From: a virus
Taxonomy: Duplodnaviria; Caudoviricetes
Direction: 5' to 3' (one strand)
Virus record (IMG/VR): IMGVR_UViG_3300042360_000367
Location: 1 to 52,007 of that record
Length of the DNA stretch: 52,007 bases
In this document: positions 227 through 40,584 of the stretch, piece by piece
Position numbering within the stretch: position 1 is the stretch's first letter
How the letters are laid out: the number at the start of each line of letters is the position of its first letter
Notes under the pieces: model-generated
Databases searched by the model: none
Told to the model about the DNA's origin: nothing
The model's input: only the letters and a program-made list of their open reading frames with translations
Translations under genes and position numbers: made by a program

Positions 227-1522
227 TCAGTTGCCGACGATGCGGCTCACCGAGTCGATGACGAACACGCCGTTGTCGGTCGCTTCCGCGTCACCGGCGG
301 CGTTCGGGAAGGCGAAGCGGAACTTCGCCTCGCCGCCCATGAACTCGCCCATGTACTCGTAGTTGCGGCCGGCGTTGTACTTGTTCTCGATGATGGCGGC
401 CTGCACGCCACTGTTCGAGGAGCCCTCGGCGCGCGCCAGGGCCTGCGCGCCCAGCAGCACCGCGCGTTCAACGCGGTGCGTGGTGCTCAGGCCTGCGGCC
501 ACCGTGCCCTCGGCTTCCGTCGCGGTCAGGCGGTTGGCCACCGGCACGTACTGGAACTTCGAGCCGGCGTTGAAGGCGATGGTGTGCTCCATCTTCTTCA
601 CGAGGATGCCGCGCCAGATGCCGCACTCGCCCATGAACAGCGCCGTGCCCTTGGCCCACTTCTGACGCTGCTCCACCGCGGCCTGGAAGGCGCGCAGGTT
701 GTTGCCCGCGCTGGCATCGGTGATGAGGTCGTTGTACTGGCCGGGGCTCAGGTACAGGCAGCCCTTGAGGGGGCTGTCATAGGCCTGATCGTCGCCGGTG
801 ATGCGCGGCGGCGGCAGCTTGGTGTCCAGGCTCTCCAGGTACAGGGCCAGGTTGTCCAGCGCCGCCAGGCTCCACTTGTCCGCGCTGTCGCAGGTCTGCA
901 GTTGCAGGCCGCCTTGCACGAGGTTGGTGCCGTCGATGACGAGGTGCCGGTTGTAGGTCGGCGCCTTCACCGGGTTCACCATGATCTCGGCGAAGTCCTC
1001 ATCGCTGGCCAGCGGGATGTCCCACGAGGAACCCGTCTGGAAGCCACGCGCGCCGGCCAGGTGGGTCAGTGCACGCTGCCAGATGAGGCGCGGGAAGTAG
1101 CCGGCGATGGCCGCGCGGGCGATGCGGCGCAGTTCGTGGCGGGTGCGCTGGCGGCTCATCTTGCCGCCGGCGTCCACGTTGAACGTGGCGAGGTCGATCA
1201 GCATGTCGAACGACGAAGAGCTCAGGCGCTTGCCTTTGCCCTCGGCGTTGCGGTCGCCCATGATGGGCTTGCCGCCGACGATGTTGAAGGCGTCGACCGT
1301 CACCTTGTCGCCCTTCGGGTCGGTGGACAGGTCGGTGATGCGCACGAACGGCATGTCAGCAGAGGTCTGCTGCTTCATGTTCGCTTCGGCGTCGCTCTGC
1401 TTCGGCGCGGGGCCGGTCAGGGCGTTGAGGTTGCCCGGGGCGCGGATCACCTGGGCGGTGACGGCCACGGAATACTGCTGCAGCGCGAGGTTCGCGCCGC
1501 GAGCGACGTTGGTTCCAGACAT
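227..1522 (-). CDS. Major capsid protein, N4-gp56/DUF4043-like
   Basis: 431 aa; motifs 'PFVRITDLS..KGDKVTVD', 'GDRNAEGKG', 'DAGGKMSRQRT', 'DNGVFVID'; position after portal and scaffold. Confidence 0.85.
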   Translation of the reverse strand: MSGTNVARGANLALQQYSVAVTAQVIRAPGNLNALTGPAPKQSDAEANMKQQTSADMPFVRITDLSTDPKGDKVTVDAFNIVGGKPIMGDRNAEGKGKRLSSSSFDMLIDLATFNVDAGGKMSRQRTRHELRRIARAAIAGYFPRLIWQRALTHLAGARGFQTGSSWDIPLASDEDFAEIMVNPVKAPTYNRHLVIDGTNLVQGGLQLQTCDSADKWSLAALDNLALYLESLDTKLPPPRITGDDQAYDSPLKGCLYLSPGQYNDLITDASAGNNLRAFQAAVEQRQKWAKGTALFMGECGIWRGILVKKMEHTIAFNAGSKFQYVPVANRLTATEAEGTVAAGLSTTHRVERAVLLGAQALARAEGSSNSGVQAAIIENKYNAGRNYEYMGEFMGGEAKFRFAFPNAAGDAEATDNGVFVIDSVSRIVGN

Positions 1523-1554
1523 GGTTCAGTTCCTTGAGGTTCGGATGGGTTGCT

Positions 1555-2550
1555 TCAGCCGAACTTGGCCAGGTGGTCCTCGATCTCCTGATCGGTCATC
1601 TCCTGCATGCGCGCCAGCATTCGCTGCGGTGGCATGCGGTCGAGCCGTTCTTCGGAGCCCGCGGCAGCACCGCCCTTCATGTCGCTCAGCGTGTTGGGCG
1701 TTTGACGCGCCGCGCGGCTGATGACTTCTTGAGGGTCGGCCCGGTTCGGGGTGGTTCTGGTGGTGCGTTGAGGGGCGGGTTCGTCCTCGATCTGGATGTC
1801 GTACTCATCGGCCACCAGGCGCGCGACGTGCGCAAAGCGCTCCGCCATGGGCTTGCCAGCCCACTTGCGCGAGTCCGAGAGCGCCACGTCCAGTTGCTGG
1901 GCGCGGCGGAACTTTTCGGGGTCGGTGGCTTGCCATGTGGCCAGGGCCGGCACGGCGTCGATGGCCGACTGCACGGGGTCGGCGTCTTCCTCGGCGGCTT
2001 CTTGGGCTGCAGGTGCCGCGGCGGTCTTGCCAGCGCCCTTCAGCGCTGCGAGCTCGTCACGGGTTTCCTTCAGCACCTTGGCCACGGCGGTAAGCGCGGG
2101 GAAGTCCTCGGCTGCATCGGCCAGCGCTTCGTCCAGGGGGTCGGCGGCTTCAGCGGCAGGCTTGCGCCCGGCTCTGAGGTCTTCGATCTCCTTGCGCAGG
2201 CGCTCGGCCTCCGCTTCGGCGGCCAGGCGCGCATCGCGCTCGCTGGCTTTATCGCGGCGGGCGGCTTGCAGCACCGCGTAGCTCAGCACCGTCTTCCCAT
2301 CCTTGCTCAGCACCCCGGAAGGGTTGGCCGGCTTTTCGGGCGTGGCGGCTGCGGGCGCAGCGGCGGCGGGTTCCTCGGCAGCGGTTGCTGCGGGTGCGTT
2401 TTCGGTTCCCTCGCCATCGTCGTCGTCACCCTGGGGGGCGGCGGCGCCATCGGCGTTGTCGTTGGCAGCGTCTTCTTCGGCTTGTGCCGCGTCCAGGGCC
2501 GCCTCGTACTCCGGGGTTCCGGGTTCCAGTTCGTTCAGGTTCACTCTCAC
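1555..2550 (-). CDS. Capsid scaffolding protein
   Basis: Acidic, Ala-rich N-terminus with coiled coil; lies between portal and capsid genes. Confidence 0.7.
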   Translation of the reverse strand: MRVNLNELEPGTPEYEAALDAAQAEEDAANDNADGAAAPQGDDDDGEGTENAPAATAAEEPAAAAPAAATPEKPANPSGVLSKDGKTVLSYAVLQAARRDKASERDARLAAEAEAERLRKEIEDLRAGRKPAAEAADPLDEALADAAEDFPALTAVAKVLKETRDELAALKGAGKTAAAPAAQEAAEEDADPVQSAIDAVPALATWQATDPEKFRRAQQLDVALSDSRKWAGKPMAERFAHVARLVADEYDIQIEDEPAPQRTTRTTPNRADPQEVISRAARQTPNTLSDMKGGAAAGSEERLDRMPPQRMLARMQEMTDQEIEDHLAKFG

Positions 2551-2587
2551 TCCTCATCCCGATTGACGGCCGGGTGCCAAGAACGAC

Positions 2588-2620
2588 AAAGCCCGCCGGG
2601 ATTGCTCCGGGCGGGCCTCG
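2588..2620 (-). terminator. Hairpin, possible intrinsic terminator or processing site between portal and scaffold
   Basis: Minus strand GCCCGCCCGGA-GCAA-TCCCGGCGGGC followed by TTTGTCGTT. Confidence 0.4.
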
Positions 2621-2732
2621 TGTTCGCCATCGCTGAATACCTCATCCACCCGGCGCGATGTAAGCCGGGCGGTGGGAACTTCCCCCTCTTACTCCCTGGC
2701 CGCGGGGGGCATGGCCAGGGACGAAACTGGTG

Positions 2733-4823
2733 TCAGGTCTGCGCGGCCTCGGCCAGCGCGGCCTCTAGGTCGGCGTCGCGGTTCGGCGTGGCCTCCTCGC
2801 GGTCGATGTTGTGCAGGTCGCGGGCCACGTTGTGGCCGATCTCGCGGGCCTTGGCGGCGTTGAGGGTGGCCACGGTATCGGCCACGCGCACGTCGGCGGT
2901 CAGCTTCGCCACCTCGGCCTCGGTCTTCGCGTCTTCCAGGGCCTTGGTCTTGGCCATCATTTCCTGCTGCTGCGCCTGCTGCTGCTGCTGCTGCTGGCGG
3001 TCGCCGGCAACCGGCACGCCCTTGGCGCGGCGCAGGTCGTCGGCAATGGCCTGGCGGTTGCTCAGGCTGCTGCCCTCGATGAACACCGGGCCCAGGATGG
3101 CCAGGGCCTGCGGGTCGCCGCGGAAGGCCTGCAGCATCGCGGCCACCTGTTGCTGCTCCTGCATGCGGAAGGCCGGGCTGGTCGGCACGTCGCTCAGGCC
3201 CACCTTCACCGGCGCGTCCTTCACGCGGTTGATCGGCGCACCGGTCTGCGCATCCCAGCTGTTGAGCACGATCACGCGCTTGTTCTGGCCGGCGCCCATG
3301 ACCACCTTCAGGTCTTCGTCGAGATGGTCTTCAACGATCATCTCCAGCACCTGCTCGTGCACCAGCTTGCGGCCAAAGCGGTAGTTGTCGTTGAGCTCGC
3401 CCATGGCGACGATGCCCTGCTCGGTCAGGCTGTTGATGGCCACGCCCGATGTCACGCCCTGCTGCGCCTGGCCGAGTTGCGTGCTGTAGACCCGTGGCAC
3501 CTCTTGGATCAGCGCCTTGCTGTCCTGCATCACGTCCACCTGAAACGGCTCCATGCGCAGGCCGTTGGCGATCTGGAAGGCGTTGGCGTTGCGCCGGTCA
3601 GGGTTCAGCACCGCCACCATATCCGGGCGGTTCATGGTCTTGGTGATGTCGGCGATGTTGTTGTATTCCTCGTCCAGCGCGTCCGAGTCCGCCACCAGTT
3701 GCCGCGCCTTGAGCATCCAGTTGATCATCTGGCGGCGCTCGTTGTACTCGTCCTGCGGGGTAATCATCCCTTCGATCAGGCCGTAGGGCGTGCGGTCCTC
3801 GTCGTCGCGGAAGGCGAAAAACGGCACGTAGGGGAAGTGCCGGCGGCGCGTGCCCTGGTCCAGCAGGCGGTGCGGGCCAGCGAACAGGGCCATGCGCACC
3901 TGCCGGGTGATGGCGCGGCTGATCTTGACCGTGCCGCGGCTCACCGCTTCGATGTGCAGCGGGTTGGTTTCGTCGTAGGCCAGGCGCTTGCCGGGGCCGA
4001 CGTGCAGCACCACCGTCTCGGCGGGCACCCGGTACCAGACTTCGTACATCTTGATGCGCTGGCGGCGCGTGTCGGCCCACTCGTCGCGGCGGATGCGCGT
4101 GCGGCGCTCGTTGCTGTAGCTGCGGTACAGGATGTTGTCGTGGTCCTCGGGCAGCGCGATGAGATCCCAGCCGTTCAGCGCCTGCTCAAGGATGCGGCGG
4201 TGCTCGGGCATCCAGGCGATGGCCTCGTCCAAGTCCATCCAGCGCTTGCGCACCAGCCAGCGGGCATCCTTCAGGCCCAGGTCGGTGGCGCGCATGTCCC
4301 ACCAGATTTCCGAGCGGTGCACGTCGGTCACGCGATACGGGTAGTCCAGCGGGTCGGCCGCGCGGCTGACTTCCACCCAGCCAATGCCGCCCTTGACCTG
4401 GCCGGCGTAGCCGTTGCTCACGGCCATGTCGATGTTGGCCTCGCGCGTGGCCTCCTTGTGCTTCTTGCTCAGGACATCGGCCACGTCCTGAAAGTCGTCG
4501 TCGTCGGCCTCGATGCGCACGTCACTGCGCGCCTTGGCTTCCTGGCCCAGCACGCCGTTGACCACCCCGTGGATGAGGTTGATCTGGCGCGGCTCGATGC
4601 CCCACTCGGTGCGGATCTTGTGCTCGGCCTCGGGCGTGAGCTGCTTGCCCATGTCGTAGTAGGCATGGGCCCGGTCGCTGCGGTCGCGCCAGTCGGGTTG
4701 GCTCTCGCAGTCCGACACCAGTTCCTCCAGCGCGTGGAGCGAGTAGCCATCCCTGGCTTCGTCGCGGGCGCTGGCGGCACCGTGCTCGCGCACAGGCTTG
4801 AGGGGGCGGGTTTCAAGCTGCAT
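2733..4823 (-). CDS. Portal protein (P22-like podoviral)
   Basis: Likely start MQLETRPLK at 4823, just after the TerL stop; motifs 'INLIHGVVNGVLGQE', 'GIGWVEV', 'PYVPFF', 'PQDEYNERR'; ~696 aa with Gln-rich C-terminal coiled coil. Confidence 0.85.
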   Translation of the reverse strand: MQLETRPLKPVREHGAASARDEARDGYSLHALEELVSDCESQPDWRDRSDRAHAYYDMGKQLTPEAEHKIRTEWGIEPRQINLIHGVVNGVLGQEAKARSDVRIEADDDDFQDVADVLSKKHKEATREANIDMAVSNGYAGQVKGGIGWVEVSRAADPLDYPYRVTDVHRSEIWWDMRATDLGLKDARWLVRKRWMDLDEAIAWMPEHRRILEQALNGWDLIALPEDHDNILYRSYSNERRTRIRRDEWADTRRQRIKMYEVWYRVPAETVVLHVGPGKRLAYDETNPLHIEAVSRGTVKISRAITRQVRMALFAGPHRLLDQGTRRRHFPYVPFFAFRDDEDRTPYGLIEGMITPQDEYNERRQMINWMLKARQLVADSDALDEEYNNIADITKTMNRPDMVAVLNPDRRNANAFQIANGLRMEPFQVDVMQDSKALIQEVPRVYSTQLGQAQQGVTSGVAINSLTEQGIVAMGELNDNYRFGRKLVHEQVLEMIVEDHLDEDLKVVMGAGQNKRVIVLNSWDAQTGAPINRVKDAPVKVGLSDVPTSPAFRMQEQQQVAAMLQAFRGDPQALAILGPVFIEGSSLSNRQAIADDLRRAKGVPVAGDRQQQQQQQAQQQEMMAKTKALEDAKTEAEVAKLTADVRVADTVATLNAAKAREIGHNVARDLHNIDREEATPNRDADLEAALAEAAQT

Positions 4824-14333: not shown

Positions 14334-14348
14334 ATCTACGGGTTAGGC
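14330..14348 (+). other. attI-like simple recombination site at the array boundary
   Basis: GCATATC (reverse complement GATATGC, 6/7 to GTTATGC), 5-bp spacer TACGG, then G|TTAGGC; same L-5bp-R layout as attI; no attC hairpin upstream. Confidence 0.5.
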
Positions 14349-14349
14349 G

Positions 14350-14541
14350 TCAAGGCAGCACCTTCAGCGTGCTGGCGTCGTAGCACTTAAAGCCTTCCCA
14401 CGCCCAGGTGCCGCGCAGCCGCTTCCCACCCTTGGCTTCGCAGTCGGCCTTGGCCGTCACCGCGCCAGTAAGCGTGAGCGCAATGACGACCAGCGCCGCC
14501 ACAATGAATACAGCCTTCAGTTGCTCTCTGCCTGTCAGCAT
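14350..14541 (-). CDS. Cassette 1: small membrane protein
   Basis: 63 aa, one TM helix and a Cys pair; fills the space between the GTT site and attC1. Confidence 0.65.
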   Translation of the reverse strand: MLTGREQLKAVFIVAALVVIALTLTGAVTAKADCEAKGGKRLRGTWAWEGFKCYDASTLKVLP

Positions 14542-14544
14542 GAC

Positions 14545-14643
14545 GCCTAACCCTTCGCTCAGCGCGACCCCGAACGGCGGGGTCTACCGTTGCGCCCTCC
14601 AGCGCCTCAGCGCCGCTCGGGTCGCGGTAGCTATGCGTTAGGC
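14545..14643 (+). repeat. attC site 1
   Basis: GCCTAAC-CCTTC-GCTCAGCGCGAC...GTCGCGGTAGC-TATGC-GTTAGGC. Confidence 0.8.
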
Positions 14644-14889
14644 GCTCTTGGCTGCAAAGTATTGGCGCTGCCAGTACGGCCAACGAATGCTGAAGCAAAT
14701 TAAAAGGTGCAAAAGACCAGGCCAAGGCCCTAGCACTCCGTCGCCTGTAGCGAACCAAACGTTGGCAATTACGAGGTTTGCCCAGAAGGCGCGGTCTTCG
14801 GCGCTCGTTGGCTCCGCGTTCGCGCCTAACCCCTCGCTCAGCCCCCGACCTGCGTCGGCGTTGTGGCTTGGGCTCGCTTCGTCTTTCAT
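14638..14889 (-). CDS. Cassette 2: small membrane protein starting inside attC2
   Basis: AAGGAGG SD and ATG inside attC2; stop is the TTA at the crossover. Confidence 0.7.
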   Translation of the reverse strand: MKDEASPSHNADAGRGLSEGLGANAEPTSAEDRAFWANLVIANVWFATGDGVLGPWPGLLHLLICFSIRWPYWQRQYFAAKSA

Positions 14890-14928
14890 GGTCTCGCCTC
14901 CTTGTCGGGGTTAGCTCGAACGTTAGCC
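14824..14928 (+). repeat. attC site 2
   Basis: GCCTAAC-CCCTC-GCTCAGCCCCCGAC...GTCGGGGTTAGC-TCGAAC-GTTAGCC. Confidence 0.85.
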
Positions 14929-15204
14929 GGCTACCAGCACGCCACGGGTGCGCAGGTAGTGCAGCGCCGCGTATCCCTCGCTGTCCGGCTGCGCGGCGTG
15001 GTCCACGATCACGCCAGGGAAGTCGCGGCCCATCACGTTGCGCGGCTCCAGCCACGACATCGGGCGCACCACTAGGTCATCGCGGCCTAGCTTCTTCGCC
15101 AGTTCCTGCGGGTACGCGGTGCGGCTGTTGCACCACACAAAGACCGCTCCCACCGGGGCCTCGGTCATCTGGCGTGTCGTGGTTCCTGTTCCTCTGTCGC
15201 TCAT
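14923..15204 (-). CDS. Cassette 3: hypothetical protein
   Basis: ATG at 15204 after AAAGGAACGAGG; MSDRGTGTTTRQ...GVIVDHAA; stop at the crossover. Confidence 0.7.
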   Translation of the reverse strand: MSDRGTGTTTRQMTEAPVGAVFVWCNSRTAYPQELAKKLGRDDLVVRPMSWLEPRNVMGRDFPGVIVDHAAQPDSEGYAALHYLRTRGVLVAG

Positions 15205-15231
15205 CCTCGTTCCTTTCGCGCCGGACACGCC

Positions 15232-15332
15232 GGCTAACTCGTCGCTCAACCGGAAACCCCCGGCAGGGCAGCGCTCGCGCGCTTCGTCACTTGCAGTAGC
15301 TGCCGGGGTTTCCGGTTAGCTCTGCGTTAGGC
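15232..15332 (+). repeat. attC site 3
   Basis: GGCTAAC-TCGTC-GCTCAACCGGAAACCCC...GGGGTTTCCGGTTAGC-TCTGC-GTTAGGC. Confidence 0.85.
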
Positions 15333-15746
15333 CGCTTGGGCACTTGGCAGGTACTCGGCCGGCACGTCCCGCAGTTCGCTGGTGTCGATGGTGTAGCCGA
15401 CCCGCTCTGCCTTCCGGAACTTGTGCGAGTGCTCGGACCACTTGAATTTGTATTCGTGACCCGCAGGCGCCCCAACATGGCGCACAACAAGCATGCCGCC
15501 CGGTGTGCGCCGCACAATCACCACGCGGCCCGCGTCTTCTTCGTTGCCACTTCGCCAGCGCCGCACACGCACCATGCGGCACTGCGGCAGCGCAGCGTCG
15601 GCCTCGGTCTGCGCTTGGCGCACAGCGGCATAGGCGGCGCCGTGTTCGGCTTCCAGCCGCTTCAGCGTGTCCCTCGCTGCGGCAACTTCGGCGGCTTTGG
15701 CGCTCAGCGCGGCCTCAGCTTCGATCACTGTCTTTGGCTTCTTCAC
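15327..15746 (-). CDS. Cassette 4: hypothetical protein
   Basis: GTG start after GGAGAG; 139 aa; stop at the crossover. Confidence 0.7.
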   Translation of the reverse strand: MKKPKTVIEAEAALSAKAAEVAAARDTLKRLEAEHGAAYAAVRQAQTEADAALPQCRMVRVRRWRSGNEEDAGRVVIVRRTPGGMLVVRHVGAPAGHEYKFKWSEHSHKFRKAERVGYTIDTSELRDVPAEYLPSAQAA

Positions 15747-15774
15747 TGTTTGCTCTCCAAGGTTGTAGCGGGCG

Positions 15775-15894
15775 GCCTAACCCATCGCTCAAAGCCGACC
15801 CCAAGGGGCCGGCGGCTTGGTTTGTGCTCGTGTGTTCCGTGGTCATCGTTGCTCCTGTGCAGCCCCTTGGGGCGGTTCAGCTCGATCGTTAGGC
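15775..15894 (+). repeat. attC site 4
   Basis: GCCTAAC-CCATC-GCTCAAAGCCGACCCCAAGGGG...CCCCTTGGGGCGGTTCAGC-TCGATC-GTTAGGC. Confidence 0.85.
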
Positions 15895-16161
15895 CTTTTG
15901 CCGCCGCACTTCTGCAATGGCGTTCGCTGCGTCGTCAGCCTGCCGCGCATAGAACATCGACAGTTTCTGTGCTGCCTCGGCCAGCTTGCGCAGGTCGCGT
16001 CGAATGCGGCGCTCCATCGCTGTATCGGTTCCAGGCACACCATGCAAACCGTCGTTCTGGTGCGTGTCTAGCACCGCCGCCACGGCGTCAAAGGTACGCC
16101 GGGCCTCGGCTGCGTTTTGCAGTTCATCGGCCAGTTGTCCAAGACTCTTTGCCATCGTCAT
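15889..16161 (-). CDS. Cassette 5: hypothetical coiled-coil protein
   Basis: GGAGAGG SD; 90 aa; stop at the crossover. Confidence 0.7.
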   Translation of the reverse strand: MTMAKSLGQLADELQNAAEARRTFDAVAAVLDTHQNDGLHGVPGTDTAMERRIRRDLRKLAEAAQKLSMFYARQADDAANAIAEVRRQKA

Positions 16162-16178
16162 CCTCTCCGGCCACCAGG

Positions 16179-16282
16179 GCCTAACTACTCGCTGAACCCC
16201 GCGACCCGCTACGGCGGGCCGCTCCTGTGTTTCTGCCTACTCCGCAGCGCCGCAGCGGTCGCGGTTAGCTCGAACGTTATGC
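16179..16282 (+). repeat. attC site 5
   Basis: GCCTAAC-TACTC-GCTGAACCCCGCGACC...GGTCGCGGTTAGC-TCGAAC-GTTATGC. Confidence 0.85.
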
Positions 16283-16558
16283 AGCACCAACAGCCGCGTC
16301 CCACTCGCGCCGCAGCTTGTCCAGAATCTCGGCGTCGTGTGTGCTGAGCGGCTGACCCACGCGCTGCGCGAGATTGAAGGCCACATCGCTAAGCTGGCCG
16401 CCCACAGCCTTAGTGGCAGCGTGTCGCTTGTCGCAGCCGGCAATCGCCAGCGCCTCAACGCGCTGCGCAAACGCATGTACGGTGCGCCCGGTCGGTGCGC
16501 CTTCGGGAGCGCCGCGCGTTACGTCGCGCCATTCTCTGTTCGCAGTTTTCCTGTCCAT
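16277..16558 (-). CDS. Cassette 6: hypothetical protein
   Basis: ATG at 16558 after AGGAGA; MDRKTANREW...; stop at the crossover. Confidence 0.7.
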   Translation of the reverse strand: MDRKTANREWRDVTRGAPEGAPTGRTVHAFAQRVEALAIAGCDKRHAATKAVGGQLSDVAFNLAQRVGQPLSTHDAEILDKLRREWDAAVGAA

Positions 16559-16591
16559 CTTCCATCTCCTGTAGTGCGCCACCAGGGCGCT

Positions 16592-16676
16592 GCATAACTC
16601 GCGTTTCGAGCAGACGCCCAGCGGCGTAGCTCACTCCGGCAGCGCCACGCGGGCGCTGCTCAAACTATCGTTAGGC
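16592..16676 (+). repeat. attC site 6
   Basis: GCATAAC-TCGC-GTTTCGAGCAGACGCCC...GGGCGCTGCTCAAAC-TATC-GTTAGGC. Confidence 0.85.
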
Positions 16677-16678
16677 CC

Positions 16679-16870
16679 TCAAGGCAAGCGAACAAAAGTC
16701 GGCGCCGGGTACGGGACCGTTTTCCAGCCGATCCATTGCTTGTCGGGTGGGCTCTGCGCTTCGTTGTCCTTGTGGCCCAGAATCTGGTAGTCCGTTTCCA
16801 GGACCACATCGCCATAGCTGCGCAGCACTTTGCCGCCTTTTTCAATCAGGGTGTGGTAATACTCGGTCAT
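16679..16870 (-). CDS. Cassette 7: hypothetical protein
   Basis: 63 aa; GGAGA SD; ATG overlaps the stop of an attC7-encoded leader ORF (ATGA). Confidence 0.65.
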   Translation of the reverse strand: MTEYYHTLIEKGGKVLRSYGDVVLETDYQILGHKDNEAQSPPDKQWIGWKTVPYPAPTFVRLP

Positions 16871-16889
16871 TGCGTTTCTCCACCAACGG

Positions 16890-17010
16890 GCCTAACCCGT
16901 CGCTCAACCGCCGACCCATCACGGCGGGTGTCTTGGTCTGGGTTCGTTTGCTCTGTGGTCATCGTTTTTCCTTTGCGCCGTGCTGGTCGGCTTTAGCTCG
17001 AACGTTAGGC
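16890..17010 (+). repeat. attC site 7
   Basis: GCCTAAC-CCGTC-GCTCAACCGCCGACC...GGTCGGCTTTAGC-TCGAAC-GTTAGGC. Confidence 0.85.
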
Positions 17011-17259
17011 CCCAATACGCTCGCCCAGCGCCTTCAGCTCTGCCCACATGGGGTCGCCTTCGGACAGCGCCTTGCTCAGTTCGCCGCAGGCCATCGCGTA
17101 GTCCAGGCACAGCGCGCGAAGCCGTTCAATCTCTGCTGCGTCGGCCTCTACGCGGTCGGCAGCTTGGCGCGCACGGTCAACAAACTGGTGCAGCCACACC
17201 GCGTCCACTGGGAAAGGCACGGGCATGCGCAGCACGCCCAACAACATCACATCGCTCAT
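17005..17259 (-). CDS. Cassette 8: hypothetical protein
   Basis: 84 aa; 'AADRVEADAAEIERLRA' coiled coil typical of phage early genes; stop at the crossover. Confidence 0.7.
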   Translation of the reverse strand: MSDVMLLGVLRMPVPFPVDAVWLHQFVDRARQAADRVEADAAEIERLRALCLDYAMACGELSKALSEGDPMWAELKALGERIGA

Positions 17260-17282
17260 GTTCTCTCGCTCCGGTAAGAGGG

Positions 17283-17352
17283 GCCTAACCCCTCATTGCA
17301 GAGCCGACCCACGCCGGCAAGCCGGCGCGGTCGGCTGAATTAGGCGTTAGCC
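17283..17352 (+). repeat. attC site 8
   Basis: GCCTAAC-CCCTC-ATTGCAGAGCCGACC-CACGCCGGCAAGCCGGCGC-GGTCGGCTGAAT-TAGGC-GTTAGCC (70 bp). Confidence 0.85.
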
Positions 17353-17583
17353 GGCTTGCAGGTCGGCGCCGTAGTCGCGCGCCAAGCAGTCGCGGTGCCC
17401 ATAGCTGACGGCGTGAGCGTTGTCGTACAGCTCTCCGTTCTCGCGTCGGTACTCGCTCCCGAACACGTACTTGAACGCCTCGCTCATCGGTTTGCCACAG
17501 CGTTCGCAGCCGCCCCAGTAATCCGAGCCGCGCCCGGTTCCTTCAATGCGCCGCACAGTGCGGCCGGTCGGCACACCCATCAC
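17347..17583 (-). CDS. Cassette 9 gene A: small Zn-binding-like protein
   Basis: CERC...HRDC motifs; stop at the crossover. Confidence 0.65.
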   Translation of the reverse strand: MMGVPTGRTVRRIEGTGRGSDYWGGCERCGKPMSEAFKYVFGSEYRRENGELYDNAHAVSYGHRDCLARDYGADLQAG

Positions 17584-17792
17584 AGCACCACGGCGGTTTG
17601 CTTGTGCGCCAGGGCGATCAAGCTGCCGGCGCGCACAGTGCGTTCAACGCTGCCGGCCAGCACAAAGCGAACGGTCTTTGCAGCAACAACCACACGATCA
17701 ATCTCGCTGCCGTCCCAGTACACCAAGCCGCTTTCGAGCTTGCTGGCTTCGATTGCGGGGAACTGTTGGCCTTTGATGTTGACGGTGTTCAT
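17580..17792 (-). CDS. Cassette 9 gene B: hypothetical protein
   Basis: 70 aa; GGAG SD; stop overlaps the start of gene A. Confidence 0.65.
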   Translation of the reverse strand: MNTVNIKGQQFPAIEASKLESGLVYWDGSEIDRVVVAAKTVRFVLAGSVERTVRAGSLIALAHKQTAVVL

Positions 17793-17893
17793 GTCTTGCT
17801 CCGGTTGGTGTTTCGATGGGTGTTATTGAATCACATAAACCAGCGCAGCACAAGCCCCTTCGCACAAGTTTTTGCATCACGTATACTCGCCGC

Positions 17894-18061
17894 ATGGAAG
17901 AACCAAAAAACCATGGTGGCCGCCCACCCGTGCCGCCTGAACAGCGCCTGGTGCAGCGCTCCATTCGCCTCACGCCTGCGCAGTGGGCCAAGATCGACGC
18001 GCAGGGGCTTGCGTGGCTTCGTGCGCTCATAGATCGTGCCCGCACTCCACCAGCCGGCTAA
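17894..18061 (+). CDS. Cassette 9 gene C: ribbon-helix-helix (Arc/CopG-like) regulator
   Basis: MEEPKNHGGRPP...VQRSIRLTPAQWAKI..GLAWLRALID; stop TAA lies in R'' of attC9 (canonical orientation); TATACT ends 6 nt before the ATG. Confidence 0.65.
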   Translation: MEEPKNHGGRPPVPPEQRLVQRSIRLTPAQWAKIDAQGLAWLRALIDRARTPPAG

Positions 18062-18121
18062 CCCTTCACTGAACGCGGACCCGTCACTGCGTGCCGGTCC
18101 GCTTTAGTTCAAACGTTAGGC
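18056..18121 (+). repeat. attC site 9
   Basis: GGCTAAC-CCTTC-ACTGAACGCGGACC...GGTCCGCTTTAGT-TCAAAC-GTTAGGC (66 bp). Confidence 0.85.
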
Positions 18122-18387
18122 GGCTCGTGGCGGGCCTGCAGTTGGCACTTCAGGCAAAGCGGCGCCATCTGCCGAACCGGCTTGCCGCGCGCCGTGCGCG
18201 CCTCCCACTCCATCACATCGCCGCTCAATTCCTGCGGGTAGCGCCACAGCCCGCACTTGCCGCACTGCTTCTGCCGCAGCCCGGCCTTGTGCTGCGCCTC
18301 GGCCCACTCGTGCCAGGCCAAGTAGCCCTCGGGCGCTTGGTCGCCGGGCTTGTAGTGCGCCTGTTCCAAGATGCAGGCAACCTTCAC
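18109..18387 (-). CDS. Cassette 10 gene A: Zn-ribbon protein
   Basis: 'PEGYLAWHEWAE..QCGKCGLW...CLKC'; reads a few codons into attC9. Confidence 0.65.
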   Translation of the reverse strand: MKVACILEQAHYKPGDQAPEGYLAWHEWAEAQHKAGLRQKQCGKCGLWRYPQELSGDVMEWEARTARGKPVRQMAPLCLKCQLQARHEPPNV

Positions 18388-18626
18388 GGCTCAATCCTCG
18401 CGTCACACTCGAATACGATGAATGGCGGCGGGGCCATCCAGACTTGCAGCGGAAACGTGCTGCGGTCGGTGCGGCGCAGGCAGTCTTCGCAGCCCTCGCG
18501 CCAGTCGCCGGGCTCGGGGTCGTAGCCTGCGCACCGCGCCACGTCTGCGGGCAGCCGCCTAACTCCTCGCTGAACCACCGGACCCGCGTCGGCGGCCGGC
18601 TTTGTCTCGTTTGCTTGCGTCATCAC
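18384..18626 (-). CDS. Cassette 10 gene B: Cys-rich small protein starting inside attC10
   Basis: AAGGAGG SD and GTG/ATG inside attC10; 'DVARCAG..CEDCLRR..C'. Confidence 0.7.
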   Translation of the reverse strand: MMTQANETKPAADAGPVVQRGVRRLPADVARCAGYDPEPGDWREGCEDCLRRTDRSTFPLQVWMAPPPFIVFECDARIEP

Positions 18627-18659
18627 GCCTCCTTGGTCCGGTTAGCTCGAACGTTAGGC
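18557..18659 (+). repeat. attC site 10
   Basis: GCCTAAC-TCCTC-GCTGAACCACCGGACC...GGTCCGGTTAGC-TCGAAC-GTTAGGC. Confidence 0.85.
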
Positions 18660-18971
18660 CCTCAAGGCTCGCAAAGCAGGGCACGCCTGCTCGCACACTT
18701 CGGCCAGCACAGCCGCCGCGATGTCGTCAAACGCTGTGTCTGATCTGCTCACGCGCCAGTGCACCGCACCCAAGGCGGCGCGCAACATTTGAATCTCCAT
18801 GTCGCGGTGTGCCAGCTCGGCCGCAATCGCACTCTTTGCGTGCAAGCCTTCCCCCGTCATCGCGCTCATGTGGCGCACAAAGAGTTCACCCTGGGCAACA
18901 TGGTCACGCTCCGCATACAGCGGGCCTAACCCCTCGCTCAGCCCCCGACCTGCACTGTCCCCGCCGCTCAT
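18654..18971 (-). CDS. Cassette 11: phage hypothetical protein
   Basis: MSGGDSAGRGLSEGLGPLYAERD..HMSAMTGEGLHAKSAIAAELAHRD; ATGA overlap with the upstream gene; stop at the crossover. Confidence 0.7.
   Translation of the reverse strand: MSGGDSAGRGLSEGLGPLYAERDHVAQGELFVRHMSAMTGEGLHAKSAIAAELAHRDMEIQMLRAALGAVHWRVSRSDTAFDDIAAAVLAEVCEQACPALRALRA
18924..18953 (+). repeat. Half attC (R''/L'' arm only)
   Basis: GCCTAACCCCTCGCTCAGCCCCCGACCTGC identical to the first 30 bp of attC2; no L'/R' arm follows. Confidence 0.75.
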
Positions 18972-20098
18972 GGCTGGCCTTTCAGGGCGGCGCCCTTGGG
19001 TGCGGGGCTGTAGTCCGGGCGCTTCCATGTGCCGCGAATGACGCTGATGCAGTCGTCGCTGTCGAGCATGTAGTCGCCCTCGGTGACGCAGTGGTCGTCC
19101 TCGGCCTTGATGGCGACGCACAGGCGCTCGCGCTCGGCTGCTAGCGCCTCCGCCAGCCCCTGCTGCACGGCATCGCGCGGGGGCTGCTCTGCCAGAGCGC
19201 CGGCCGCAAAGACACCCCCGGCCGCATCCTCAAGCGCGCACAGTTCCGCCATTTCGGCGGCGCTGCGCTCCGGCTGCTCTCGGCGCACACGGCCTGCATT
19301 CGGGCCGCCAGAAATAAGCCGCGACCGCTGCGCGGGTGTCAGGGTTAGGGGCTGCTCTGCGCGCTCGGCTGGCGTGGGGTGGGTGGCGGCTAGCTTGCGC
19401 AGTTTGCTGGCGAACAAGTAAGCGTTCTCAAGAAGATGCGCAGCCCGAGTGCACACCTCGCCGCGACGAGAGCTACCGCCGCGTAGATCGGCTGCCGTTT
19501 TCAGCCAAGCCGCAAGCTCGCCATCGTCGGGCAGTTCAGCGGGCGCCGGCTGCTCTTGTGCGGCTGGCGTGGGGTGGGTGGCGTAGAACGGGCGCCAGCC
19601 TGCGGCGCGCGCCTCGGCTTCAGTCAGCGGCGCGGGCGGCTGCGGCCCTTTGTGGAAGGCGGGGGCGTAGAAGTGGGGTGGCTCGCTGTCACGAACCCAC
19701 CACGCGGGTGCCGGCTGCTCTTGTGCGGCTGGCGTGGGGTGGGTGGCGGCAAACCGGGAAAGCATCAGGCGCTCAATGGCCCTGGCTACGGCTCGGTCGT
19801 ATTCCTGCGGTGCCATGTTGGCGCACATGATTTCGCTGCACGCCTCGTCAATCTCGGCATCCCGCAGGATGGCCGGCGCCGGCTGCTCTTGTGCGGGCGC
19901 TGCTGAAGGACACACCTGATGCCCGTTGCGAGCCCAAACGCAATCCTTGGGCGAGATTGCGCTTTGCTGCTCTTGTGCGGGCGGGTGGGCGTAGAGGGGC
20001 GTTCCCTCGGGCCGCGGCGCACCGTTCCACTCAAGCGTGTAGCGGCTCATGTGAACCTCGGCGACAAACGCCACCGGCCCGGCCTCGGTCTTGCTCAT
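18968..20098 (-). CDS. Modular early protein with repeated ATHPTPAAQEQPAPA linkers (Ead/Ea22-style mosaic)
   Basis: Start MSKTEAGP at 20098 overlapping the upstream stop; repeated linker peptides. Confidence 0.7.
   Translation of the reverse strand: MSKTEAGPVAFVAEVHMSRYTLEWNGAPRPEGTPLYAHPPAQEQQSAISPKDCVWARNGHQVCPSAAPAQEQPAPAILRDAEIDEACSEIMCANMAPQEYDRAVARAIERLMLSRFAATHPTPAAQEQPAPAWWVRDSEPPHFYAPAFHKGPQPPAPLTEAEARAAGWRPFYATHPTPAAQEQPAPAELPDDGELAAWLKTAADLRGGSSRRGEVCTRAAHLLENAYLFASKLRKLAATHPTPAERAEQPLTLTPAQRSRLISGGPNAGRVRREQPERSAAEMAELCALEDAAGGVFAAGALAEQPPRDAVQQGLAEALAAERERLCVAIKAEDDHCVTEGDYMLDSDDCISVIRGTWKRPDYSPAPKGAALKGQP
19545..19748. repeat. 39-bp perfect direct repeat (19545-19583, 19710-19748) with partial copies near 19366, 19878 and 19967
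   Basis: GCCGGCTGCTCTTGTGCGGCTGGCGTGGGGTGGGTGGCG. Confidence 0.85.
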
Positions 20099-20481
20099 GA
20101 TGCTCTCCGTTCTTCGTTGGCGGCCATCTGCGCCACGGCGAAGATGCTGTTGGGGGTGGTGGTAATGACCTGGCGCAGGGCGCGCAGCTTCTTCTTGTAG
20201 CGGCGCGTGCGCTCCGCATTCGTGAGCGTGCCGGGCCGGCGCGCGTCGGGCTGATTGCCCAGGGCGTACACGGCGCGCAGTTGGTCGCGCGTGTCTTCCT
20301 GCTTGCGCACCCAGCGGGCGATGTAGATGCAGCGCGTCAGTTGCACGCCCTTGTGCATCGTTGAGATTGAGGCTGACACCCTGAACTGGTCCGCCGCAGG
20401 CCAGAAGGCCTGCACCTCGGATCGCGTCATGGGGCCATGCTCGGCCAGAAGCGCGCGGATGGCTGCGTAGCTGGGTTTCAC
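20095..20481 (-). CDS. Hypothetical protein, winged-HTH-like
   Basis: GTG start overlapping the upstream TGA; 'IRALLAEHGPMTRSEV'. Confidence 0.6.
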   Translation of the reverse strand: MKPSYAAIRALLAEHGPMTRSEVQAFWPAADQFRVSASISTMHKGVQLTRCIYIARWVRKQEDTRDQLRAVYALGNQPDARRPGTLTNAERTRRYKKKLRALRQVITTTPNSIFAVAQMAANEERRAS

Positions 20482-21740
20482 GCCACCTCCAGCGCATCGA
20501 CGGCGGCGAACCAGCGGGCCCACCATTCCGGGCCCATCTTGGGGTGCGTGGGGAAGCGGCTCGCGCGGGCTTCGGCGGCCAGGGCGCGCAGGGTGTCGGC
20601 GGGCGTGGGCTCAGGTGTCAAGGATTCCTTGACAGTTGCCGGCTCCGGGTTCACCTCGGCCAGCCCCACGGCCTCGCCCGGGTCTGCGCGGTCGCCGCCC
20701 ATCTCGGCTGCAGTGGTGTGCGGGGCAGCGTCGGGATCGTCGGCGCGGATCGGGTCGCCCGGGTCGGTGGCGATGGCGTCCAGGGTGTCGCCCAGGGCCA
20801 GCAGGTTCGGCAGCGCGGCGGCCTTCTCGCGTGCCGTGGCGGCTGCGCAGCTGGTCTCGAACTCCGCTTGAAGCTCTGCCGCGCGCTTCAGGTCCAAGGC
20901 GGCCAGCCGGTCGCTCTCGGCTTGCTTGGCCGCAGCCTCCGCAGCCCGTGCCGCGGCCTCACGCGCGGCCAGTTCCTCGGCGGCCTTGCGGATGGCGGCG
21001 GCCTCGGCAGCGATGCGGCGTTCCTGCTCGGCGAGCTCGGCGGCCCGGCGCTCGTTTTCCAGCCTGATGGCCTCCTGCCGCGCCGCCTCGGCCTCGCGCG
21101 CCGTAGCCTGGGCGTGCAGCACCTGCATCTGTTCCAGCGCGCGGGCCTTGGCGCCGGCCAGGGCTTCGGCACGGGCGGCGTCGGTGTCGCTCACGTCGCT
21201 GTCGGTCAGCATCTGGATGCCCCGGGCGATACGCTCGGCCGTCATGCCCACTTCCTGGCAGCGCAGCAGGTAGCCGGCGATGGTCTGCAGGCGCGCGGCG
21301 TGGCGCTCCTGGGCCTCGCGCTCGATGCGCTCTTTCTCGGCCTTCTCAGCAGCCCGGCGCTGCTCGTCGGCCTTGATCTGCGCGTCTATCGGCGCCTCCA
21401 GGGCTTCGATCTCGGCCGTGATGCGCGCGGCCTCGGTGTCGATCAGCTTGCCGTAGGCCAGCGCCGGGGCCTTGAAGTCCTTGCGGCGCTTCTCCAGCGT
21501 CGTGCGCAGCGTCACGCAGCGCAGGCGGTCGGCGCGGGCCGCTTGGTCGCCCTTCGTGGTCTTCAGGTCGTAGGTCTTGCCGGCCAGTTCCGCCTTCAGC
21601 GCGGCCAGGCCTGCCTCGGTGGCGCTGTACTTCACCAGCGGGGTGCCGTTGACGATCTGCGCGCGGTCCACCACCTCGTCAGCCACTTCGGCGCGGCGGG
21701 CGATGGTGTCCACGATCTCGGGAAGGGGGGTGTCAAACAC
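20478..21740 (-). CDS. Coiled-coil phage protein of the recombination module
   Basis: GTG at 21740 after GGAG; 'LEKRRKDFKAPALAYGKLIDTEAARI..IEALEAPIDAQIK'. Confidence 0.7.
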   Translation of the reverse strand: MFDTPLPEIVDTIARRAEVADEVVDRAQIVNGTPLVKYSATEAGLAALKAELAGKTYDLKTTKGDQAARADRLRCVTLRTTLEKRRKDFKAPALAYGKLIDTEAARITAEIEALEAPIDAQIKADEQRRAAEKAEKERIEREAQERHAARLQTIAGYLLRCQEVGMTAERIARGIQMLTDSDVSDTDAARAEALAGAKARALEQMQVLHAQATAREAEAARQEAIRLENERRAAELAEQERRIAAEAAAIRKAAEELAAREAAARAAEAAAKQAESDRLAALDLKRAAELQAEFETSCAAATAREKAAALPNLLALGDTLDAIATDPGDPIRADDPDAAPHTTAAEMGGDRADPGEAVGLAEVNPEPATVKESLTPEPTPADTLRALAAEARASRFPTHPKMGPEWWARWFAAVDALEVA

Positions 21741-30442: not shown

Positions 30443-30731
30443 GCGGGCCTCGATGCCCCGCGCGGACGCCAAGCAGACACCGGCGCGCGGGACACGACAC
30501 CTCTACCGGGGGCAAGACGCGGAAGCAGAGGGGCGGGGTGGCGAAGGCAGCGCCCCAGCGTCGAGCGGCTACCGGGTCTATGTGGCTCCAGACGGCACGT
30601 AGTGAAGGACTCATCCGGCAGGCTGGGTCCGTCCACCAAACGGCACCAACGAAGAAAGCATTTGGCTGTTTCTCTATGAGCGCTACTACCTCACCTACGC
30701 ACGCGACGCGCCGGCCGGCAGGGGGCACGCT

Positions 30732-36365: not shown

Positions 36366-36599
36366 GTGAGCGACCCCCTGATGAGCGCTGACGAGATCCG
36401 CCGGGTGGCCGGCGGCTACGTGCAGCCGTCGAAGCAACTGGCCGAACTGAAGCGCCAAGGCTTCTGGCGCGCACGCCGCGCCCGGCTGACTGGCGAGGTG
36501 ATCCTTGAGCGCGCACACTACGAGGCCGTGTGCAGCGGCCAGGATGCGCGCCCCTCGCTGGCGCGACCCGAGCACACGCCCACACTGAGGCCCGCATGA
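36366..36599 (+). CDS. xis: Excisionase-like protein (DUF4224 type)
   Basis: 'MSADEIRRVAGGYVQPSKQLAEL..QG'; stop overlaps the int start. Confidence 0.65.
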   Translation: MSDPLMSADEIRRVAGGYVQPSKQLAELKRQGFWRARRARLTGEVILERAHYEAVCSGQDARPSLARPEHTPTLRPA

Positions 36600-37600
36600 C
36601 CCGATCATCCGGCCTGCCGCGGCGGGTCTACCTGAAGCACGGCCGCTACTGGTTCGTGGCCGTCGACAACAAGTGGCACAGCCTGACGCGCGAGCGCGAG
36701 GGCCTGCCCGCCATGTTCCGCGCGCTGGCCGCCATCACCGAGCAGGCGCGCGCCGGTGACATGATGCCGGCCGTGGTGTCGCGCTGGCTGGAAGAAAAGG
36801 CGGCTGCAGGCGATTGGTCCGAAGACACCAAGACCGACATGGACCGGGTGGCCGCCGCCATCTCCAAGCGCTTTCTGGACTTCCGGCCCTACCAAGTCAC
36901 CACGCCGGTGTGCGCCGAGTACCTCAAGACGTACCTGAAGAAGCCGCGCACCTACAACCTGCACCGCAGCGTGTTGCGCCAGGTGATGGCCGCGGCAGCG
37001 CGCGAGGGGCTGCGCGAGGGGCACAACCCCATCGACAACATCCCGCAGCGCAAGCTGGCCAAGCGCGTGCGCATCGTGACGCCGGCCGAGATCGACGCCA
37101 TGGCCGCGGCGCTGATGAAGGCCAAGCGCGGCGGCCCGGCCCACGTCCGCATGCTCGGGCTGTGCCTGAAGACCGGCCAGCGCATCGGCGACGTGCTGAA
37201 GTTCCGCGCCCAGGACTGCACCGACGAGGGCGTGATCGTTGACCAGGGCAAGACCGGGGCCCCGCTGGTGGTGGAGTGGGACGCCGAGCTCAAGGCGCTG
37301 GTGGACGAGTGCTTTGCAGGCCGGGACCGCATCGGGTTCCTGCTGGTGCAGAGCACCGGCCAGCCCTACCGCTACTCGGGCGTGCGCAGCGCCTGGGTGC
37401 GGGCCATGGAGCGCGCCGGCATCGAAGACCTGCACATCCATGACCTGCGCGGCGAAGCCGGTGCGCGCCTGGCCGACATGCTGGGCCCCTACGCCGCACA
37501 GCTGCTGCTGGGCCATGCCAGCGTGAAGATGACCGAGCAGTACATCGCAGGCAAGACGCGCAAGCGCGCCAAGCCCGCGCCCATGAAAAAGAGCGTCTAA
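36596..37600 (+). CDS. int: Phage tyrosine integrase
   Basis: 'TGQRIGD', 'HDLR', 'LLGH', 'TEQY'; N-terminal arm-binding 'LPRRVYLKHGRYWF'. Confidence 0.92.
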   Translation: MTRSSGLPRRVYLKHGRYWFVAVDNKWHSLTREREGLPAMFRALAAITEQARAGDMMPAVVSRWLEEKAAAGDWSEDTKTDMDRVAAAISKRFLDFRPYQVTTPVCAEYLKTYLKKPRTYNLHRSVLRQVMAAAAREGLREGHNPIDNIPQRKLAKRVRIVTPAEIDAMAAALMKAKRGGPAHVRMLGLCLKTGQRIGDVLKFRAQDCTDEGVIVDQGKTGAPLVVEWDAELKALVDECFAGRDRIGFLLVQSTGQPYRYSGVRSAWVRAMERAGIEDLHIHDLRGEAGARLADMLGPYAAQLLLGHASVKMTEQYIAGKTRKRAKPAPMKKSV

Positions 37601-40467: not shown

Positions 40468-40584
40468 TCAGGGCCTGCTGAACAGCGCGGCCAGGGCGGC
40501 CACGATCAGCAGGCCCCACGGGCCCAGGGTCCAGGCCAGCGTAAGAAGCCCGGCGAGCACGGACCAGCCGCCGAGGTTGTTCAT
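40468..40584 (-). CDS. Tiny hydrophobic protein
   Basis: MNNLGGWSVLAGLL...; ATGA overlap with the giant gene's stop. Confidence 0.45.
   Translation of the reverse strand: MNNLGGWSVLAGLLTLAWTLGPWGLLIVAALAALFSRP

Follow-up and report, generated by a model that had tools for sequence, protein, structure and literature searches.

We analysed a window of 52,007 nucleotides (nt), the whole of the Caudoviricetes record IMGVR_UViG_3300042360_000367 of IMG/VR (our record G000; 81% complete, 67% G+C), which encodes a portal, tail/virion proteins, an exonuclease, an Erf-like protein, and a phrog_1 integrase. An array of 11 integron-type cassettes (14343 to ~19000), with attC recombination sites on the plus strand and genes on the minus strand, separates a structural gene (end at 13739) from early-type genes on the minus strand (18968 onwards). 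Comparison of related sequences suggests that this array, in which attC sites run one way and phage genes the other, is probably shuffled by an integron integrase (IntI) borrowed from the host, and that the junctions kept are those that end translation safely. Phage attC clusters as such are already known.

An attC site consists of R''-L''-L'-R' boxes with RYYYAAC ... GTTRRRY cores, spacers of 5-6 nt, and a length of about 57-141 nt. Within 4.1 kb, the window holds 10 complete sites (66-121 nt, spacers of 5-6 nt) and an 11th without R'. The 11 crossover points (G at 14342, 14637, 14922, 15326, 15888, 16276, 16670, 17004, 17346, 18115, and 18653) alternate with 11 R'' boxes, and all 11 cassette starts are complementary to their own R'' over 8-11 nt. 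In each of the 10 complete sites, position 4 of L'' holds an extra base, L'' and L' pair at 5-7 of 7 positions, and the bottom strand gives the more stable fold; their polarity, on the plus strand, is that of IntI-linked bacterial arrays. The array thus shows the boxes, the extrahelical base with strand bias, the self-complementary ends, and the movement between G and TT that are expected of integron cassettes, and, with at least two clustered attC sites and no IntI nearby, it is a cluster of attC sites lacking integron-integrases (CALIN). It differs from canonical promoterless cassettes, whose gene lies on the attC top strand, is read from Pc, and runs opposite to intI, in that 10/11 window cassettes are antisense and one is uncalled. 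A complete integron, with an intI that has the IntI-specific insertion beside attI and the array, is absent from the window and present in three related viral records (G032, G035, and G037).

The sequence-only reading had held that eight minus-strand genes stop on the TTA that follows the crossover G, and open reading frame (ORF) calls confirm this at 14638, 14923, 15327, 15889, 16277, 17005, 17347, and 18654. The exceptions are cassettes 1 and 7, which end at a TGA 7 and 8 nt inside (14350 and 16679), and cassette 10, which reads across. Relative to a null of one frame in three, 8/11 core stops gives p=0.009.

All eight core-stop genes are supported by homologues or coding scores, and the case named beforehand as refuting the reading (spurious ORFs, or homologues that normally end elsewhere) did not arise. 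The coding score, obtained from a Markov model that was trained on long ORFs of viral loci and separates known genes from shadows, is positive for 7/8 and -3.9 for cassette 2, which has two divergent homologues (53% identity over 94% of the length, 66% over 57%) that both retain the N-terminus encoded in attC and have Ala as their last residue. For cassette 3 there are 43 homologues, many of them exactly 93 residues long. For cassette 4 (151 clusters), the modal end is that of the query, a tail of 6 residues, in 29/123 aligned sequences. Cassette 6 has 45 homologues, and among the best 27 of these 20 end in Ala/Gly and several have tails with Asn, like those of read-through genes. The cassette 11 gene matches phrog_34533 (E 6e-10), a family found in 136 cultured-phage records. 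Homology is weakest for cassettes 5 (phrog_18628, E 0.003) and 9 (one 30% hit), which rest mainly on coding score. A TAA-ending open frame alone is no evidence, because cassette 10 contains one such ORF, 18116-18406, that is spurious (it scores -17.9 for coding, against +21.1). We also rejected open-frame length as a sole test, since frame 0 is open through cassette 10 though its genes use other frames.

We inspected three regions of cultured phages that contain homologues, of cassette 11 in two cases and of cassette 10 in the third; in all of them starts overlap stops, and an attC of this family is absent. The array gave no blastn match to cultured phages, and a tblastn search with cassette 3 gave no match; NCBIfam and Pfam assigned no function above cut-off to any cassette protein, Rfam found nothing within the array, and a promoter and terminator scan gave results near chance.

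We took a census anchored on an 18-nt arm motif, which retrieved 118 viral stretches and, from genomes, at least 240 stretches, many of which belong to Rubrivivax and further Burkholderiales. Cassettes whose ends were self-complementary over less than 7 nt were dropped (50/186 viral and 14/308 bacterial unique cassettes, mostly missed intermediate sites). The census set therefore comprised 136 viral cassettes plus the 11 of the window, four of them added by hand, for a total of 147, and 294 bacterial cassettes. A first gene model called 119/136 viral cassettes, all antisense (54 at TAA, 27 read-through), and left 161/294 bacterial cassettes uncalled; a second model was retrained on cassettes, blind to strand. 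With this second model, 144/147 viral cassettes are antisense and none is sense, whereas the bacterial set contains 228 sense, 12 antisense, 3 mixed, and 51 uncalled cassettes.

The 144 viral antisense genes stop at the core TAA (67), stop within 20 nt of it (36), run through it (37), or end far from it (4), while the 228 bacterial sense genes stop at the TAA of R'' (82), near it (60), or far from it (85), and one runs through. Accordingly, 140/144 viral versus 143/228 bacterial genes end at most 20 nt from the core or cross it. The pattern holds across 115 viral families (56 TAA, 30 near, 24 through, 5 far; frames 59/28/28, p=2e-4), and internal genes of multi-gene cassettes end in TAA in only 6/37 cases. 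Normal integron cassettes often stop in R'', as our counts also find, so the arrangement in phages is, as had been proposed, their mirror image (67/144 in R' against 82/228 in R''). The count of R' stops suggested earlier, antisense cassettes of phage against those of bacterial arrays, thus gives 67/144 for viruses, and the bacterial side holds only 12 antisense calls; six of these are of phage type (loci L128 and L158), and no stop at R' occurs among the remaining six. In the available text of the ACID paper (PMC2674596) and the permafrost paper (PMC13323075), stops in R'' are not addressed. The core also sets the last residue, which is Ala in 54/61 core-TAA viral genes, 10 of which end in Ala-Ala; we take these Ala-Ala ends to resemble a putative ClpXP degradation signal.

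The core TAA is one of three junction registers and not the sole design. Genes end at the core TAA, end just before it, often at a TGA seven bases in that mirrors the bacterial arrangement, or pass through it and terminate within the attC of the neighbour. A minus-strand stop at +7 is equally common in bacterial (97/294) and viral (34/147) cassettes. Read-through is confined almost entirely to one frame, which encodes Pro-Asn (36/37), and viral attC sites close this frame early: a stop follows within 60 nt in 136/143 viral versus 108/284 bacterial sites, and it overlaps a start in 54/132 versus 29/248. Likewise, a ribosome-binding site (RBS) and start lie on the attC bottom strand in 60/143 viral versus 28/284 bacterial sites, including four in the window. 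The third frame, open for at least 19 codons in 7/10 window neighbours, is almost never crossed by genes. For the last gene of cassette 10, the tail would be 1-14 residues long, depending on the neighbour. The first 15 bases are common to cassettes 7 (16671-16686) and 11 (18654-18669), which use them in different frames (TGA versus core TAA), and the start of cassette 1 (14343-14358) is similar.

Evidence that the cassettes move comes from related records and from lake-water metagenome runs, in which the phage region is present (four runs compared, the possible source run excluded). In a sister record (G020), cassettes 2, 3, and 4 recur at 98.1-99.7% identity; the order there is 1', 3, 2, other, ..., 4, and the matches end -9 to +13 nt from crossovers. 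A contig of another lake run (X3) covers 14920-18496 with 0 differences, which makes it unlikely that the array is an artefact of assembly. Cassettes 3, 6, or 7 also occur on contigs of lake runs X6 and X7 that then run into unrelated sequence. Joints seen in the comparison of runs were not taken for excised circles, as they have short sides and derive from attC repeats of other organisms. For relatives of cassette 3, we examined 28 of 42 loci (the remainder being near-duplicates or short matches), and the gene ends at the core TAA in 8/28, before at least six different downstream sequences; one of these loci, L387, has no confirmed upstream R''. The gene end is kept across relatives at 72-100% identity, and three relatives without attC (L374, L398, and L404) have their ends at nearly the same place, L374 being located at the end of a contig. 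Single gene families switch register, including between +7/+10/+13 and TAA.

The proposal that each gene stays intact beside any neighbour therefore needs qualification. The comparisons support neighbour-independence for the TAA class, as cassette 3 illustrates, and it fails for the 37/144 genes that read through. The proposal that the cassettes were built inverted and not flipped by chance is favoured by the absence of sense viral cassettes and by starts with RBS inside attC, and phage-type cassettes stay antisense even within a bacterial array. That stops were written into the core is overstated: the phage did not write them, because TAA is already part of the near-palindromic core that this attC family has in bacteria. 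The stop is an inherited feature of the core, and the finding is now counted against a bacterial control.

As the genes are antisense, each runs towards its own cassette's crossover, the last point before foreign sequence. We propose that the borders of cassettes were set where ordinary phage genes naturally end, that selection kept junctions ending translation safely beside any neighbour, and that it removed the third frame, which attC would not reliably close. IntI would recombine the folded bottom strand, here the coding strand, and host IntI would serve phages that have no intI of their own. Three candidate reasons may account for the inversion. An intI at the end of the early gene run, with canonical polarity, may force the cargo to be antisense; replication, which is described as biasing the folding of the attC bottom strand (available text of PMC8946536), may do the same here; or transcription may leave the bottom strand as the non-template strand. 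The cassette genes appear to continue the phage's run of minus-strand genes, with overlapping starts and stops.

The source of the recombinase can be approached through relatives. IntI scoring over the TIGR02249 cut-off occurs in 5/5 bacterial genomes found by way of loci that carry this attC family and in three of 50 related viral records (G032, G035, and G037), in the latter directly beside antisense cassettes. In these three, intI comes immediately after the first antisense cassette and shares the strand of the cargo, the junctions share an attI-like motif, and the IntIs are 53-61% identical to each other and 48-57% identical to bacterial IntIs. TIGR02249 hits at E<=0.001 occur in 5/50 related viral records, and 47/50, including all seven that are >=90% complete, have no IntI over cut-off. 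In the window, the recombinase has no TIGR02249 hit and no IntI-specific insertion, and the upstream junction of cassette 1 (14342) has no attC and no match to the attI-like motif of the IntI-bearing relatives. Loci L058 and L076 hold a second tyrosine-recombinase-like gene beside IntI. In the sister phage locus L084 (reverse strand, ~3940-4040), the first junction resembles the post-intI junction of bacterial locus L364 and is possibly an attI remnant, absent from the window.

Several observations weigh against the reading we prefer. The window has no recognisable attI and no IntI, as three phage IntI queries give no significant match (best E 0.017), and the phage's host is inferred from attC type. 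The 37 read-through genes, spread over 24/50 loci, have their ends supplied by the neighbour; one of these calls uses the third frame; and the tails of cassette 4 relatives range from 1 to 35 residues after the anchor. The core-stop rates of viral and bacterial genes differ at borderline significance (p=0.05), the gene calls come from purpose-built Markov models that left 51/294 bacterial cassettes uncalled, and a few genomes dominate the bacterial set, so that viral/bacterial contrasts are not independent samples. Lastly, GTTA begins 291/294 bacterial and 136/147 viral cassettes, and the census anchor forces TTA; among unanchored cases, the TAA share is 40/97 and the frame-0 share 42/97 (p=0.026).

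We regard as tentative a more far-reaching possibility, that Betaproteobacteria phages run their own mirror-image integron system, which would be a site of cassette making and whose attC would be fitted to phage genes. The hairpin might then serve as RBS and as start or leader, the core as stop, and one frame as a translated joint. In some lineages, IntI may conceivably be encoded where the early operon ends, and cassettes, once finished, might spill into chromosomal integrons of the host. Two bacterial loci are of interest here. In a betaproteobacterial metagenome-assembled genome (MAG), locus L158 (reverse strand, ~1000-2540) holds two phage-type antisense cassettes in a mostly sense chromosomal array, which we take, from the look of their sequences, to be methyltransferase-like (with its start in attC) and Lar-like; a phage-to-host cassette transfer is possible. 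Locus L128 (reverse strand, 430-3050), a prophage-like contig of a Roseateles MAG, carries an antisense array, has one cassette gene in common with L058, and contains a relative of window cassette 8.

The near-universal GTTA start, the equal frequency of +7 stops in bacteria and viruses, the switching of families between +7/+10/+13 and TAA, and the modest enrichment in the unanchored set would all be expected if the stops were a by-product, with a near-palindromic core placing TAA on both strands and dense phage genes running into it without selection. We consider this unlikely, as it leaves unexplained the use of one frame by 36/37 read-throughs, the early closure and bottom-strand starts of viral attC sites, and the conservation of the cassette 3 end.

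Shuffling by a tyrosine recombinase of the phage itself that is not IntI, or by homologous recombination among the attC repeats, appears improbable. The window encodes suitable enzymes (the phrog_1 integrase, Erf-like annealing protein, and exonuclease), and the many viral records without IntI over cut-off, 7/7 of the most complete ones among them, agree with such a route; most of these records show no TIGR02249 hit at all, which speaks against it. Moreover, breakpoints fall at the crossover G and are not spread across repeats, the extra base and strand bias, both IntI-type features, are retained, and the array-adjoining recombinase, where present, is a true IntI. According to the available text of Cury et al. 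(PMC4889954), recombinases near attC that lack the IntI insertion were judged not to be IntI.

The least credible alternative, ordinary bacterial cassettes that were captured and whose genes were flipped later or by chance, draws on an attC family that is that of Burkholderiales chromosomal arrays and on the antisense cassettes known in bacterial integrons (Xanthomonas symE), but it is contradicted by the 0/147 sense viral cassettes, by the presence of cargo families in cultured phages where no attC of this type lies close by (3/3 regions), by searches of five host-type genomes, in which all matches among the 150 of 432 listed are attC-sized except for one 95-nt piece in a prophage-like contig, and by the nature of the bacterial antisense calls.

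Among known systems, phage CALINs and integrons were established by Qi et al. 2023 (PMC9892861), in whose main text 5/6 phage attC sites recombine with attI1 under IntI1. The likeness to our array is an attC cluster without IntI in a phage. That text, supplements aside, describes no antisense genes, R' stops, attC starts, or fixed read-through frame, and the complete integrons reported in it are, unlike those found here, mostly host-type or class 1 pieces. The sedentary chromosomal integrons of Rubrivivax and other Burkholderiales (L129, L143, L165, and L174) share the attC arm consensus and the IntI/attC polarity, and likewise have self-complementary cassette ends and core stops. They differ in that genes are sense (228/243 called), cassettes are longer (median 470 versus 329 nt in phage), attC sites are longer and more stable, the stop lies over 20 nt away from the core in 85/228 genes, and there is almost no read-through.

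Toxin-antitoxin cassettes of bacterial integrons carry a gene opposite to attC polarity. The same holds, as here, for the Xanthomonas symE/sRNA-Xcc1 antisense cassettes (bioRxiv 2025.06.18.660453), and, as far as the available text goes, such bacterial cassettes are rare exceptions that are not under the array promoter, whereas in phage inversion is the rule. IntI-mediated insertion at secondary attG sites (Loot et al., bioRxiv 2022.09.11.507474) offers a route for attC DNA into a phage operon; as described in the available text, it covers existing cassettes and neither ends that are complementary over 8-13 nt nor gene starts held in attC. We found no paper on an inverted phage cassette design in a search that was made mostly by title and the start of the abstract and whose coverage left out most subscription journals.

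How gene cassettes arise is a long-standing question. Gene families found here as cassettes also exist without attC, and the border lies at the gene end; the two forms make natural before-and-after pairs. If this holds, a direct test of cassette genesis would become possible with the matched versions of the cassette 3 family. Core-ending stops likely allow genes to be reshuffled without damage, integron recombination may give rise to an exact, gene-by-gene mosaicism of the early regions of phages, and natural attC sites that also serve as starts, stops, and joints of translation would be useful for engineered gene shuffling.

The coordinates of the array are collected in Table 1.

Table 1. Features of the cassette array and of the recombinase genes (window coordinates unless a locus is named)
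Feature	Position	Strand	Remarks
Cassette 1	14343..14637	+	gene 14350-14541 on minus, TGA 7 nt inside; attC 14545-14643
Cassette 2 gene, 83 aa	14638..14889	-	RBS and ATG inside own attC; stop is R' TAA
attC of cassette 2	14824..14928	+	R'' 14824, crossover G 14922
Cassette 3 gene, 93 aa	14923..15204	-	stop is R' TAA
attC of cassette 3	15232..15332	+	crossover G 15326
Cassette 4 gene, 139 aa	15327..15746	-	large family; stop is R' TAA
Cassette 4 predicted leader ORF, 43 aa	15715..15846	-	begins inside attC, overlaps gene start
attC of cassette 4	15775..15894	+	crossover G 15888
Cassette 5 gene, 90 aa	15889..16161	-	stop is R' TAA
attC of cassette 5	16179..16282	+	crossover G 16276
Cassette 6 gene, 93 aa	16277..16558	-	stop is R' TAA
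attC of cassette 6	16592..16676	+	crossover G 16670
Cassette 7 gene, 63 aa	16679..16870	-	TGA 8 nt inside cassette
Cassette 7 predicted leader ORF, 31 aa	16867..16962	-	begins inside attC; its TGA overlaps gene ATG
attC of cassette 7	16890..17010	+	crossover G 17004
Cassette 8 gene, 84 aa	17005..17259	-	stop is R' TAA; L128 relative likewise stops at TAA
attC of cassette 8	17283..17352	+	crossover G 17346
Cassette 9, two overlapping genes	17347..17792	-	17580-17792 and 17347-17583; second stops at R' TAA
Cassette 9 promoter-like site	17859-17887		upstream of small divergent ORF
Cassette 9 possible divergent small ORF	17894..18061	+	unproven; coding score -2.7; ends at TAA of R''
attC of cassette 9	18056..18121	+	crossover G 18115
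Cassette 10 last gene, 92 aa	18109..18387	-	crosses crossover, stops in neighbour's attC
Cassette 10 first gene	18384..18626	-	start inside own attC, behind RBS
attC of cassette 10	18557..18659	+	crossover G 18653
Cassette 11 gene, 105 aa	18654..18971	-	phrog_34533 family; stop is R' TAA; ATG overlaps TGA of upstream gene 18968-20497
Terminal attC	18924..19010 (end approximate)	+	left arm intact; decayed right arm without GTT
Phage tyrosine integrase, phrog_1	36530..37600	+	without IntI-specific insertion; ~18 kb from array; probable bystander
True IntI in phage loci	L058 3491-4600; L076 3495-4475; L072 1300-2286

In the last attC, the left arm is identical to that of cassette 2 over ~30 nt and the right arm is decayed; the upstream gene, which encodes a repeat-containing protein of 509 residues, overlaps the start of cassette 11 inside this site. 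The stretch 17793-18061 of cassette 9 is intergenic and AT-richer, and the core stop may serve both strands there. Elsewhere in the window, a Betaproteobacteria-1 RNA (Rfam, above gathering score) at 30455-30577 on the plus strand is consistent with a betaproteobacterial host, and an ORF of 3803 residues (40581-51992, minus strand) matches a DarB-like antirestriction family in its C-terminal part.

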